From Dictyostelium discoideum (taxonomy: Eukaryota), in contig CM000153.2 in the NCBI GenBank assembly GCA_000004695.1, positions 2,656,001 to 2,720,000 on the forward strand: 64,000 bases of DNA, in the 5' to 3' direction. How positions within the stretch are numbered: the first letter of the stretch is position 1; each line of letters opens with the position of its first letter. A model generated the notes under the pieces. It was not told the origin of the DNA and searched no databases. It saw only the letters and a program-made list of their open reading frames with translations. This document shows, one piece after another, positions 10,993-15,865 of this stretch. Both the position numbers and the translations under genes were made by a program.

Positions 10993-11577
10993 TTATATTT
11001 TTGGAGAAGATGGTGAAGTTGGTGATGAAATTGAAGAGGATGATGACTCTGGTATTGATAATGATACATCTAAAAATTGATAATTGAAAAATAAATCATC
11101 TAAAGTTATTAAATCATCAGCAGATTTCTTATTTGAAAATACTGTTCCAATTGGTTTCGATACATATATACCCCTTGAATCTGGATAAATAAATGCAAAT
11201 TCAAATTTTGATTCTTTATGTCTTGCTAATTTATATGTTTCTTTAATTAAAATTGTAATTTCTTTTAATGTTGCATTTCTCCTAAATTAAATAAATAAAT
11301 TAATTAATAAATAAATTAAAAATTAAAAAATATAAAAAATATGAAATTACCATGTATAGATTTGAATTTCATCTTTTTCTGGTACATTTCTTGAAGAAAA
11401 TTCACTAGGACTATGAAATGAACCTTCTTTAATAAAAACTCTTAATAAGAATGGGCAGATCTTTTCCCTATTTAGTGTTGCTATTCCTAAATTACTTCCA
11501 TTGCCTGTTGAATTAATATTATTATTATTATTATTATAATGATAATTATGATGAGAGAAACCTCCCTTATTGGTCAT
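10993..11577 (-). CDS. sap18: SAP18 (Sin3-associated polypeptide p18) homologue; exons 11577-11351, 11281-10993
   Basis: Exon 1 encodes ...REKICPFLLRVFIKEGSFHSPSEFSSRNVPEKDEIQIYTW (compare human SAP18 REKTCPLLLRVF...EFSRGNVP..ELQIYTW). The donor is CATG|gtaatt. The acceptor ttaatttag|GAGAAATGC continues RNATLKEITILIKETYKLARHKESKFEFAFIYPDSRGIYVSKPIGTVF..., matching the SAP18 core. Confidence 0.85.
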
Positions 11578-11884
11578 TGGGAATATAATTTAAATAATTT
11601 TATGAAAAATAAAATTCAAAAAAAAAAAAAAAAAAAATTTATTCGAGAACGAATTGTTACTTATTTACTTGTTTATTTTTCATTATTATTTTTTTTTTTT
11701 ATTTTTATTTTTTTTTTTTTTTCATTTTTTATTTTCATTTTTTTTTTTTTTTCATTTTTTTTTTTTTTTTATCTTTTTTGAATTAATTTTTTTTTTTCAT
11801 CTTTTTGAATTAATTTTTTTTTTATTTTTATTTTTAATTTATTCAAGTTCAATTTTTTAAAAATATATATATATCCATATAAAG

Positions 11885-12401
11885 ATGTTAAAAAGTTTAA
11901 ATTTTATAAATAGAGTAACAGTATCTTCATTATCAAAAACTCGTAACTTCACATCACAAGTTAATAAAGAAACATGGGATAAATATGTTGCAAGCAATAA
12001 AAAACCAGTTGTTGTTGATTTCTTTGCTACGTATGTTTTTCTTTTTTAATTTTATTTTTGCCTATTTCTCTTATTCTTTTTAATTTTGTGTATAGATAAA
12101 AAAAAAAAATTTAAAAAAATAAAAACTAACCTAAACATTTTATTTTTATAGATGGTGTCCACCTTGTAAACAACTTGAACCAGTATTAGTAAAAGCAGTA
12201 GAAGATTATGGAAAATGTGATTTATATAAATATGACATATCTGAAGAAGAAGGATTTCACGAAAAATTTGGAATTCAATCAATTCCACATGTTATTGGTT
12301 TTCATAATAACAAAATAGTTTTCGAATTCAAAGGTGCCATTCCAGCATCCCAAGTTAAAAAACATTTGGAAAAATTTGATGAACATTTAGGCGAAAAATA
12401 A
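11885..12401 (+). CDS. Thioredoxin (WCPPCK active site) with an N-terminal presequence-like extension; exons 11885-12030, 12152-12401
   Basis: MLKSLNFINRVTVSSLSKTRNFTSQVNKETWDKYVASNKKPVVVDFFAT | WCPPCKQLEPVLVKAVEDYGKCDLYKYDISEEEGFHEKFGIQSIPHVIGFHNNKIVFEFKGAIPASQVKKHLEKFDEHLGEK*. The intron is GCTAC|gtatgt...tttttatag|ATGGTG. Confidence 0.85.
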
Positions 12402-12955
12402 AAAACAAATAAAAAAAAAAAAAATATATTAAATAAATAATTAAAAAAAAAAAAAAAAAAAATTTGGATAATTCCTTTTTATCATTTTTTTTTTTTAATT
12501 TATATTTATATTTATTTTTAAAAAATAATACTAATAATATTAATTAAAATTAACAGTTTTTGGTGGTTAATTTTTTAAAAAACAGATTTAAAAAAAAAAA
12601 AAAACCACAAAAAAAATAAAAAAAAAATCTAATTGTTTAAAGATTAAATATAAAATTAATTATTTTATTTTATTTTTTTTATCCACCCCATCTATTTAAT
12701 TTTATCCACCAAATGTACTTTAAATGCACTAGTTATTCTAAAGTAGTTTTTTTTAATTATTTAAAAAAAAAAAAAATATATTAAATAAATTTTAAAAAGA
12801 AAAAAATAAAAAAATAAAAAAATAAATATAAAAAAACAAAAAAAATTATTTAATTCAATAAAAAAAAATTTAAAAAAATTTATTAAAGGTTATAAACAAA
12901 TCATTCCTTCTTGACTTAAATAAATAATCAGTTACTCAATTATAAAAATTTTAAA

Positions 12956-13455
12956 ATGATTAGAAATATAAGTAAAAGTATTGTAAATTTAAATTCTCAA
13001 AAAATTGCAACAAATACTTCATTTAAAGAACTTGTACTTGAATCAAAAAAGCCTGTTATTGTAGATATTAGGCCATGGTAAATTTTAAAATAAAATAAAA
13101 TTAAAAAATAGAAAATAATAAAATGTTTATTGATTTTTAAATTTTTCTTAACATTTTTTTTTATTATTTTTTTTTTTTCTTTATTTATATATATAGTTAT
13201 TATACACCAACAAAGTTTTTAAATAAAGAATTATTTGAAGCAATTAAAGAAAAAAATGATACATTTGAATTAGTAACAATTGATTTCGATGAAGAATATG
13301 AATTGGCAAAGCTTTTAAAAATTCAAAGTTTTCCAACTATAATTGGTTTTTCAAATGGTAATTTCTTAAAAAAACATACTGGTCCATTCCGTAGTAAAAG
13401 CCATATCCTTGAATTTTTAAATCACATTGAAACTGAACATAAAAAAAAATATTAA
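12956..13455 (+). CDS. Thioredoxin-fold protein with a degenerate active site (CYYT instead of CxxC); exons 12956-13077, 13197-13455
   Basis: MIRNISKSIVNLNSQKIATNTSFKELVLESKKPVIVDIRP | CYYTPTKFLNKELFEAIKEKNDTFELVTIDFDEEYELAKLLKIQSFPTIIGFSNGNFLKKHTGPFRSKSHILEFLNHIETEHKKKY*. It has the same architecture and intron position as the thioredoxin 1 kb upstream, but the resolving Cys is absent. Confidence 0.65.
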
Positions 13456-13584
13456 TGTAAAACTCTAAAAAAAAAAAAAAAAAAAAAAAAAAAGCTTAAT
13501 TAAATAAAAAAAAAAAAACTAATAATAAAATGTATAATATATTTTTTAAAAATTCATTTTTATTTTATTTATTTATTATTTTAT

Positions 13585-15865
13585 TTATTTATTATTATTA
13601 TTATTATTTACCACATGATTTAATAATGCGATTGAATTTGAAAAAGAGAAATTAATATTTTGACCTCTTGATCTTATATAAATGGTACGAAGATTAATTA
13701 AAATATAAATTATTAAAGATATTAATAATGTAAATAACACAATCCATGGTAATACATGCATACCAATATATTGTTGACATATACCAATTAACCATGGAAT
13801 TACGATCTCTCCTGCCACTGCACCAATAACCATATAGGATGTTGATTCACCAGTAACTGGTATCGATAAATTTTGAGGGAGAGAGAACGCAGTTGGGAAA
13901 ATTGATGCTAAACTTAAACCCAATCCAGCAGTTGATATCCAAAGTATAGCTGATGAATTTGGGAAAAATATCATTAAAAGTGTAAAGAAGAAACAACCCA
14001 ATGTATCCATAATAACCATCTTTTGAGGTGACATTACCAATGATATAAAAACTCCTGCTAATCTACCAACTGTAAAACTTCCCCAAAACATTGAATTTAA
14101 TAATGCTCCTGTTTTTTCATCAAATTTTAAATTTTCAATACTATATTAAAAAAAAAAAAAAAAATTAGTTAAAATTATAATGATAAATAATTAATAATAA
14201 TAATAATAATTACCTAAATGTACAAATCCAACCACCAAAACCACTTTCACCACCGACATAAAAAAATAAGAATACAGCTATTGCAGCTATAACTTCAATT
14301 TTTAATCTTTTTTCTGTTTTTGAACTACTGATATCATTATTATTACTATTATTAATCTTTAAATCTGTTGATTCATTAATTTTATCATTTATAGTGTTTG
14401 TAATTGCATCATCAACAATATTTGAACTGTTATTATTATTATTATTATTACTATTATCATCAATATTACCAGTGGAAGGTATTAATTCAATATCTTCTAC
14501 AACTGGTGGTTTTGCAGGTTTTAAAAATATAACAGTAAGAAAACTTGAAAGCATAACCATTGATAATACGAAATATTGAGTGAATAATGAATTTTCAGAC
14601 ATTCCTGCAACAAATAAAGGTGCAACAAAAGCTCCAAGACCAAAAGAAAAATGTAAAAGTTGCATGAATGGGTTAACTTTTTCCTTCCATACCCAAACTA
14701 TTAATGTATTTAAACTTGAATCGATTAATCCTGCACCTCCACCCTCCAACATGAATAAAAATGCTGTTAACCAAATATTCTTACTTAATGGTATTAATAA
14801 TAATGATATTGACATTAATATAACACAACCTGCAATTACTAAATTATTATTTTTAACCCTATCTAAAAACTATTTTTTTTAAAAAATAAAATAAATAATA
14901 ATAATTTAGTAAATTAAAAAATAAATAGGATATATGATTATGTAATAATAACAATAATAATAATAATAATAATAATTATTATTATTATTACTTACTCTAC
15001 AACCTAATGAAAATATAAAATAACCAAGACCTCTTGCAGAAAAAAAATAACCAACTTGATCAGTTGAAGCATGTAAATGATAAGTGAAACTATGTAATGT
15101 TGGACCTAAAGAACCAACACTAATACCTAAAGCTACAAAACAAAATAAATAAGCTGAAGTTAAGATTAATTCAGATCTATGCATTGAAGCATCAATTTTA
15201 ATCTTTTCACATTGTTCCAGTATTCTTTCATAGATATTATTATTATAGTTCTTTTTAATATATTGACTGAAAGGGGCAATATAACCACTATCATCCATCG
15301 ATGTTATAAAATCACTTTCATTCAATTCATTAACTCCATTATCATCCAATGTTAATGTAAATTCGTTAAATGATTGTTGATGTTTATTTTTAAAATTTTT
15401 ACCATATATATTATCATCATCATATTCATTATTGTCATCGCTATAACTACCAATTACATTAATATTATTATTATTATAGTTGATATTATTATTATTACTA
15501 TTATTATTCGGTATATAATTACTATTATTATTATTATTATTATTACTTCTATTAGATGATTTTATATTTTGATAATCTTCCTCTTCTTCTTCTTCTTGTT
15601 GTTCTTCTTGTTGTTGCTGTTGTTGAATATCTATTGAAGTTTTTGGTGGTGAAATTAAACTTTGACTGTCATCATTAAATTCTTCAATTTCTCCAGACAT
15701 GTTTATATCCTCTTTACTTTGATTCATTATAATGGCACCACTATTTGATCCAATGGATGCTGTACCTTCTTCTGAAAATTCACTATCATATTGGTTAATA
15801 TTATTTTCATTGCCATTACTAACGCTATTTGAATCTTCCAATCTAATGAAATCTCCTTTTGTCAT
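13585..15865 (-). CDS. Major-facilitator-superfamily transporter, MFSD4 (sodium-dependent glucose transporter-like) family; exons 15865-14996, 14869-14214, 14140-13585
   Basis: Exon 1 has a long hydrophilic poly-N/Q/E N-terminus, then TM1/TM2 (LFCFVALGISVGSLGPTL...GYFFSARGLGYFIFSLGCR). It ends AGA|gtaagt. The acceptor aaaaaaaatag|TTTTTAGATAGG continues FLDRVKNNNLVIAGCVILMSISLLLIPL.... Exon 2 ends ...GGWICTF(AG|gtaatt). Exon 3 starts ttaatatag|TATTGAAAAT... and runs to ...NHVVNNNNNNK*. The exon-2 low boundary is placed to agree with the ORF-track frame. Confidence 0.7.

Follow-up and report, generated by a model that had tools for sequence, protein, structure and literature searches.

The downstream copy of a tandem pair of thioredoxin-fold genes in Dictyostelium discoideum is best explained, at a probability of roughly three in four, as encoding a catalytically dead, selected protein of the mitochondrial TXN2 type, which is predicted to be imported into mitochondria and to act by binding rather than by thiol chemistry. 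The core of this reading, namely a redox-dead and selected thioredoxin-fold paralogue, is very probable in its own right. As judged by alignment, the active-site sequence WCPPC of the upstream copy (gene 1) has become YYTPT in the downstream one (gene 2), with both catalytic cysteines absent, and between species gene 2 is under purifying selection that is stronger than that on gene 1 in the same species.

The gene pair and its orthologues

Both genes lie on the + strand of the window, the 64,000-nucleotide stretch of D. discoideum DNA that was analysed, in an extremely AT-rich region where GC content is 23.6% across the window, 23-29% in exons, 7-14% in introns and 10% in the intergenic spacer. 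Gene 1 consists of two exons (11885-12030 and 12152-12401) separated by a GT..AG intron of 121 nt (12031-12151, GTATGT..ATAG; 14% GC against 26-29% in the exons), and enumeration of gene models yields a product of more than 100 residues for one single-intron model only. Its first exon encodes a presequence-like N-terminus, opens the thioredoxin domain and supplies the bases AC for Thr48; the intron, in phase 2, falls in this codon directly before the active-site Trp, and the second exon, which includes the stop codon, opens into the WCPPC motif (12153-12167), a widespread active variant present in many thioredoxins among our matches and in the alignment. Gene 2 is likewise built of two exons (12956-13077 and 13197-13455) around a GT..AG intron of 119 nt (13078-13196, GTAAAT..ATAG; 6.7% GC), also in phase 2 and within the homologue of the gene 1 Thr48 codon. 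Here exon 1 encodes a short basic N-terminal extension, the β1-α1-β2 elements and the bases TG of the Cys41 codon, and exon 2, again with the stop codon, carries the degenerate active site YYTPT (Tyr42-Thr46, 13198-13212) and Pro87 (13333-13335).

The spliced products, of 131 and 126 residues respectively, are identical to the D. discoideum AX4 proteins XP_639944/Q54NX3 ("thioredoxin domain-containing protein") and XP_639945/Q54NX2 ("Thioredoxin domain-containing protein, mitochondrial"; both names from UniProt/UniRef), and both gene models are therefore the ones already annotated in AX4. Several features proposed in a first-pass annotation of this DNA hold up well: the two genes were placed about 550 bp apart on one strand (the spacer is 554 bp), with a common two-exon layout and the intron just 5' of the active site, with WCPPCK correctly read in the first gene, and with similar presequence-like N-termini, which in both products run for 24-28 residues without Asp or Glu and carry 4-5 Lys/Arg and many Ser/Thr.

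The order SAP18 (-), gene 1 (+), gene 2 (+) is common to D. discoideum, D. firmibasis, D. dimigraforme and D. purpureum, the SAP18 exon within the window being confirmed by Pfam. In gene 1 of the latter three species the site and phase of the intron are identical to those in D. discoideum, and WCPPC is retained throughout the gene 1 orthologues except that D. firmibasis has WCSPC. D. discoideum strains, D. citrinum and D. dimigraforme share the gene 2 motif RPCYYTPTK, which differs by one residue in D. firmibasis (RPCYYTPSK); D. purpureum has QPSWDLPIK, in a protein wholly free of cysteine. Cys41 is invariant across the D. discoideum clade, represented here by all of these except D. purpureum. 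Conservation of CYYT among dictyostelids, raised as a check in the first-pass annotation, is thus found within the D. discoideum clade but not in D. purpureum. Because the D. purpureum orthologue also lacks CxxC and has no cysteine at all, loss of the motif predates the split between D. discoideum and D. purpureum, and Cys41 is not conserved across the family.

Word-indexed searches, started from individual proteins and from a profile that took in D. purpureum, returned no gene 2 orthologue beyond group-4 Dictyostelium. An exhaustive HMMER search over 1.84 billion representatives gave, within its best 150 matches, no close relative without cysteines other than these same orthologues, all other close matches there carrying CxxC. 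The Cys-less gene 2 appears from these comparisons to be of recent origin within group-4 dictyostelids and independent of other Cys-less families.

Active-site register and predicted fold

The gene 2 motif had initially been written RP-CYYTPTKF, with the nucleophilic cysteine retained; its letters stand, as RPCYYTPTKF with a Cys41 codon split TG/T, but its register does not, Cys41 being placed two positions N-terminal of the nucleophile. BLASTP of gene 1 against gene 2 aligns DFFATWCPPCK to DIRPCYYTPTK ungapped, and the same ungapped register is returned by HMMER with a gene 2 profile against solved thioredoxins and by two MAFFT alignments, the gap implied by RP-CYYTPTKF being inserted by none of the three programs. 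The phase-2 intron provides an independent marker, as it interrupts the same aligned codon in both genes (AC/A, Thr48, in gene 1 and TG/T, Cys41, in gene 2). Given in the order E. coli TrxA, gene 1, gene 2 and D. purpureum gene 2, the register reads Asp26, Asp44, Asp37 and Glu; Glu30, Thr48, Cys41 and Ser; Trp31, Trp49, Tyr42 and Trp; Cys32 (the nucleophile), Cys50, Tyr43 and Asp; Gly33, Pro51, Thr44 and Leu; Pro34, Pro52, Pro45 and Pro; Cys35 (the resolving cysteine), Cys53, Thr46 (Ser in D. firmibasis) and Ile; and Lys36, Lys54, Lys47 and Lys. Since both the ungapped register and the shared intron codon put Cys41 two residues upstream, gene 2 has lost both catalytic cysteines: the C-x-x-C positions are occupied by Y-T-P-T, and by D-L-P-I in D. 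purpureum, whereas gene 1 has the CxxC feature. A multiple alignment with thioredoxins, suggested in the first-pass annotation, gives the CYYT register no support and sets Tyr43 in the nucleophile column, while the accompanying proposal that the downstream copy lacks CxxC is borne out, and its redox inactivity is very probable. Reading the lone cysteine as a monothiol active site is tempting, and is corrected here.

Both products belong to the thioredoxin family as defined by Pfam PF00085 (cut-off 23.5 bits), with 83 bits (E 1.7e-23) for gene 1 and 47.9 bits (E 1.5e-12, residues 17-116) for gene 2, over profile positions 3-102 and 4-102 of 103, respectively; aligned with each other by BLASTP, they are 29% identical (E 4e-11). 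When the Pfam search is extended to E 1, gene 2 matches only PF00085 and, weakly, PF13098, and no glutaredoxin or monothiol family. Other assignments were considered and rejected, as gene 2 has no significant Pfam match to the DIM1, phosducin, OST3/6 or DsbA families and none to the nucleoredoxin/tryparedoxin-like PF13905 (Thioredoxin_8), which in gene 1 covers just 30 residues around WCPPC at 29.6 bits, far under the PF00085 score.

The AlphaFold2 model of gene 2 (36-sequence alignment; mean pLDDT 83.8, pTM 0.78) predicts the thioredoxin order β-α-β-α-β-α-β-β-α. Compared with the PDB by Foldseek (E ~1e-9, target TM ~0.85, rmsd ~2 Å), it matches best thioredoxin m, mycobacterial and rickettsial thioredoxins, human TXN2 (1uvz) and E. 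coli TrxA, and the complex of T7 polymerase with thioredoxin (1t7p) is also among the matches. Gene 2 retains the fold determinants Asp37 (the Asp26 equivalent, Glu in D. purpureum), Pro87 (the equivalent of E. coli cis-Pro76) and Gly103 (the Gly92 equivalent), and the Pro76 and Gly92 columns are invariant in the MAFFT alignment of E. coli TrxA, TXN2-type thioredoxins and the orthologues of both genes; the cis-Pro loop and Gly103 make up the remainder of the substrate groove. In canonical thioredoxins the nucleophilic cysteine caps helix α2. The model does not begin this helix until residue 49, a delay of about six residues relative to the canonical fold, and residues 41-50 are the sole weak stretch inside the domain (mean pLDDT 64). 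Overall, gene 2 is predicted to adopt a classical thioredoxin fold with an active-site turn modelled at low confidence.

These data bear directly on whether gene 2 could be a monothiol thioredoxin, in which Cys41 would be the nucleophile and, lacking a resolving partner, would form mixed disulfides or bind either glutathione or an Fe-S cluster. Cys41 is indeed the sole cysteine near the active-site loop, its invariance in the D. discoideum clade is what such a role would predict, and the low pLDDT of the loop leaves its geometry uncertain. All alignments, however, put Cys41 at the position of E. coli Glu30 and gene 1 Thr48, with Tyr at the nucleophile site, and the shared intron codon gives the same register; in the model Cys41 follows strand β2 and is not at the N-terminus of a helix, the Pfam search lacks any glutaredoxin or monothiol match, and the syntenic D. 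purpureum orthologue has Ser at this position. The monothiol option, put forward in the first-pass annotation, is consequently not sustained, and we regard it as improbable. As Cys41 is invariant in the D. discoideum clade, a thiol role specific to that lineage is possible on the strength of the orthologue comparison.

Origin, selection and splicing of gene 2

Ranked against a gene 2 profile, the top single-domain matches with CxxC are proteins named "thioredoxin, mitochondrial" from stingray, mussel and Drosophila, accompanied at the top of the ranking by sponge and Coemansia homologues with N-terminal extensions. Because the best CxxC relatives of gene 2 bear this name, genes 1 and 2 are both assigned to the mitochondrial TXN2 type. 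Gene 1 orthologues rank only 47th to 149th, below animal and fungal mitochondrial thioredoxins, and in a neighbour-joining tree with 200 bootstraps genes 1 and 2 are grouped exclusively in 1.5% of replicates, each gene being monophyletic across species at 71% and 60%, respectively; by score and by tree, gene 1 is not the nearest relative of gene 2. A repeat search between the two genes at the DNA level detected low-complexity A/T matches and a single further stretch of 31 nt (12272-12302 against 13320-13350) that covers the cis-Pro loop and is 74% identical. The first-pass annotation had called the downstream gene a tandem duplicate; the same-strand tandem pair of thioredoxin-fold genes is confirmed, but neither the profile ranks nor the 1.5% bootstrap value unites the two, and direct duplication of one from the other is a putative origin. 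Tandem duplication would nevertheless be the most economical reading, because of adjacency, common strand, shared intron site and conserved synteny rather than sequence affinity.

Selection on the two copies was compared by dN/dS (Nei-Gojobori with codon bootstrap), the values being rough because the genes are short (~126 codons) and the base composition is extreme (genome 23% GC): gene 2 has dN/dS of 0.24 between D. discoideum and D. firmibasis (dS 0.49), 0.15 between D. discoideum and D. dimigraforme (dS 0.48) and 0.10 between D. firmibasis and D. dimigraforme (dS 0.87), against 1.21 (95% CI 0.75-2.13), 0.29 and 0.73 for gene 1 in the same pairs. All bootstrap upper bounds for gene 2 are at or below 0.44, and 0 replicates reach 1. 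Within the degenerate motif itself, D. firmibasis differs by synonymous changes that keep the residues (AGG/AGA, TAT/TAC, ACA/ACT, CCA/CCC, AAG/AAA and TTT/TTC). Interspecies identity in the D. discoideum clade is 79-84% for gene 2 versus 52-75% for gene 1, so that here the dead gene is under tighter constraint than the CxxC gene next to it. In D. firmibasis gene 1, with dN/dS of about 0.7-1.2, the buried Asp is replaced by Gln.

The tighter constraint on a Cys-less copy than on the CxxC gene beside it is, in our view, the most interesting aspect of this locus.

A redundant duplicate, deprived of its active site and on the way to becoming a pseudogene without a function of its own, would explain why the active-site residues differ wholly between lineages (YYTPT versus WDLPI), why gene 2 is less similar than gene 1 when D. 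discoideum is compared with D. purpureum (35% against 45% identity), and why one D. discoideum strain has a variant C-terminus in a 132-residue product. Against such decay, every genome examined has an intact reading frame whose length and splice sites are conserved, the residues that determine the fold are retained, and gene 2 is better conserved in the clade than the CxxC copy. The low dN/dS and the synonymous changes within the degenerate motif argue that gene 2 is functional and not a relic, and neutral decay is in our estimation quite unlikely.

The last alternative, in which the gene model is an artefact and CxxC is restored in the true mRNA through a different junction or exon, draws on the splitting of the Cys codon by the intron and can be dismissed, since GT..AG single-intron enumeration leaves a single model with the domain preserved, the forward frames of 12900-13460 contain no C..C motif, the junction is the same in three species despite differing intron lengths (119 nt in D. 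discoideum, 90 nt in D. firmibasis and 108 nt in D. dimigraforme), and D. purpureum gene 2 lacks this intron, its homologous stretch VVVEFQPSWDLPIKRYN lying in a single exon and likewise without cysteine. The reading frame across the gene 2 junction is set by this single-exon comparison, the D. purpureum coding sequence being collinear across the junction position, and the uninterrupted, cysteine-free exon argues both against a splicing artefact and against an essential Cys41. The 13077/13197 junction, which had been singled out for confirmation, is therefore upheld.

Proposed role and comparison with known systems

Across orthologues the N-termini carry 4-10 Lys/Arg, many Ser/Thr and an amphipathic stretch, and the acid-free segment extends to 44 residues in D. 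purpureum gene 2; in the AlphaFold model of D. discoideum gene 2 the extension is short, with about 11 disordered residues ahead of the domain. By composition these N-termini fit a matrix presequence, and they fit the UniProt name. A mitochondrial localisation of gene 2 is predicted on these grounds and is somewhat favoured. We found no paper citing Q54NX2 or Q54NX3, and general searches returned nothing on these genes; in their main texts, the Dictyostelium mitochondrial compendium (PMC9118663) and spatial-proteomics papers do not mention thioredoxin.

We propose a model where the basic, acid-free N-terminus would direct import of the gene 2 product into mitochondria and where, with no thiolate at the N-terminus of helix α2, the protein would be incapable of thiol-disulfide exchange according to established thioredoxin chemistry. 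Disulfide reductase activity is not expected of gene 2 because the catalytic cysteines and the Gly are replaced, Trp31 has become Tyr and the α2 turn is weak. The protein would instead act by non-covalent binding on the preserved thioredoxin groove, by analogy as a holdase, an adaptor or a subunit-like factor, and redox work would be left to gene 1, with its WC(P/S)PC motif. A chaperone or adaptor mode in particular is a tentative suggestion drawn from analogy. It is likewise conceivable, if somewhat speculative, that the Cys-less copy has taken on a new, selectively important and redox-independent mitochondrial role in group-4 dictyostelids, to which its tighter constraint would relate; it could then be a holdase, could belong to a mitochondrial complex as a non-catalytic subunit or assist in assembling one, or could regulate the clients of the neighbouring thioredoxin as a non-turnover binder.

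The thioredoxin fold serves as a binding module without thiol chemistry in DIM1/TXNL4A, in the b and b' domains of PDI and in phosducin-like proteins, and E. coli TrxA serves T7 DNA polymerase structurally, as a redox-independent processivity factor. Gene 2 has no sequence-family match to DIM1, phosducin or similar families. It resembles mitochondrial TXN2, bacterial and organellar TrxA and Trx m in Pfam family and in predicted fold (target TM ~0.85), and keeps an N-terminal extension together with the equivalents of Asp26, cis-Pro76 and Gly92; it differs from TXN2 and TrxA in that neither the two cysteines nor the Gly of WCGPC survive, Tyr takes the place of Trp31 in the D. discoideum clade, and the model does not form the first turn of α2 with confidence. 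Relative to gene 1, it shares the strand, two exons, a phase-2 intron in the homologous codon, a presequence-like N-terminus and a TXN2-like type, whereas gene 1 keeps WC(P/S)PC, is 29% identical and evolves faster in the D. discoideum clade.

The best functional analogy is the mitochondrial Trx2 of Trypanosoma brucei, likewise a mitochondrial thioredoxin-type protein with a cysteine-independent function: it has no disulfide reductase activity, its all-Cys mutant still complements, and its essential function is accompanied by a holdase chaperone activity that prevents protein aggregation (PMC6783113). Unlike gene 2, T. brucei Trx2 retains its cysteines and is regulated by their oxidation, and it is not an orthologue; holdase activity is a feature of the trypanosome protein, and would extend to the Dictyostelium one by analogy only. 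Thioredoxin-fold pseudoenzymes are a recognised class, and gene 2 opens no new category but makes a lineage-restricted addition to it, in which the lineages carry different replacement motifs and one of them has since kept its motif fixed. The case is clean and young, the organism lends itself to genetics and the dead copy lies beside its live counterpart; the pair would be a convenient system for asking what the thioredoxin scaffold does without its chemistry.

Evolutionary rate of the CxxC-bearing copy

Gene 1, the copy that retains the CxxC motif, was compared with its D. firmibasis orthologue (window 11885-12401 against L001:4928-5429). Pairwise identity between the D. discoideum and D. 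firmibasis proteins is just 52%, with a dN/dS of 1.21 (CI 0.75-2.13), and the D. firmibasis protein combines a WCSPC active-site motif with the reading VVVQF, which places a Gln at the equivalent of the buried Asp26 (E. coli TrxA numbering). Judged from these sequences, gene 1 is evolving unusually rapidly, and in this clade the live thioredoxin is under less constraint than the dead one, gene 2. In D. purpureum, the gene 1 orthologue spans L003:3698-4154 and the deposited model covers L003:3773-4154 (100 aa), where an in-frame ATG at L003:3698 extends the protein by MLKTLTFVTKSAPLMVGRRSFTTNV to 125 aa. The deposited model appears to be truncated at its N-terminus; the added MLKTLTFVTKSAPLMVGRRSFTTNV matches the presequence-like gene 1 N-terminus of the other species.

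Intron turnover and strain variation in gene 2

A phase-2 intron precedes the degenerate motif of gene 2 in the three D. discoideum-clade species (D. discoideum, D. firmibasis and D. dimigraforme). This active-site intron is absent from the D. purpureum orthologue (L003:4553-5069), which carries a 73-nt phase-1 intron at L003:4875-4947, directly ahead of the cis-Pro loop (between KVL and EFPT), and the predicted gene structures indicate intron turnover between D. purpureum and the D. discoideum clade. Within D. discoideum, the 132-aa gene 2 protein of one strain (P0037, ACTFIR_010754; homologous to window 13430-13455) ends in EHKKNINVQNSF vs EHKKKY otherwise. This difference suggests that the A-run at the 3' end of the gene carries a polymorphism, either a frameshift or a stop-loss. 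The gene 2 differences in other strains are E52D and L80F.

Flanking genes and the gene 1 upstream region

Upstream, the thioredoxin pair is flanked by a SAP18-homologue exon on the minus strand (window 11347-11577; PF06487, E 2.9e-15), itself preceded by an Asn-rich tract. On the downstream side, also on the minus strand (window 13585-14091), a gene for a multi-pass membrane protein contributes its last exon. This protein shows weak, sub-threshold MFS/UNC-93 similarity, and its orthologues are genes of 701-770 aa located downstream in the D. firmibasis (L001) and D. dimigraforme (L002) loci. The region between gene 1 and SAP18 (window 11640-11860) forms a T-rich tract in which TTTTTTCATTTTT units recur. 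Immediately 5' of the gene 1 ATG (window ~11770-11820), it also includes a direct duplication that is nearly perfect, CATCTTTT(T)TGAATTAATTTTTTTTTT. This may constitute a divergent promoter element common to gene 1 and SAP18.

Partial active-site loss in repeated modules

P0046, an unrelated metagenomic protein of 412 aa, features four tandem thioredoxin domains, two of which keep WCAPC; the other two are degenerate (GSASC and TSKAC), with the sole remaining Cys at the resolving position. It represents a further case of partial active-site loss, here among repeated thioredoxin modules.
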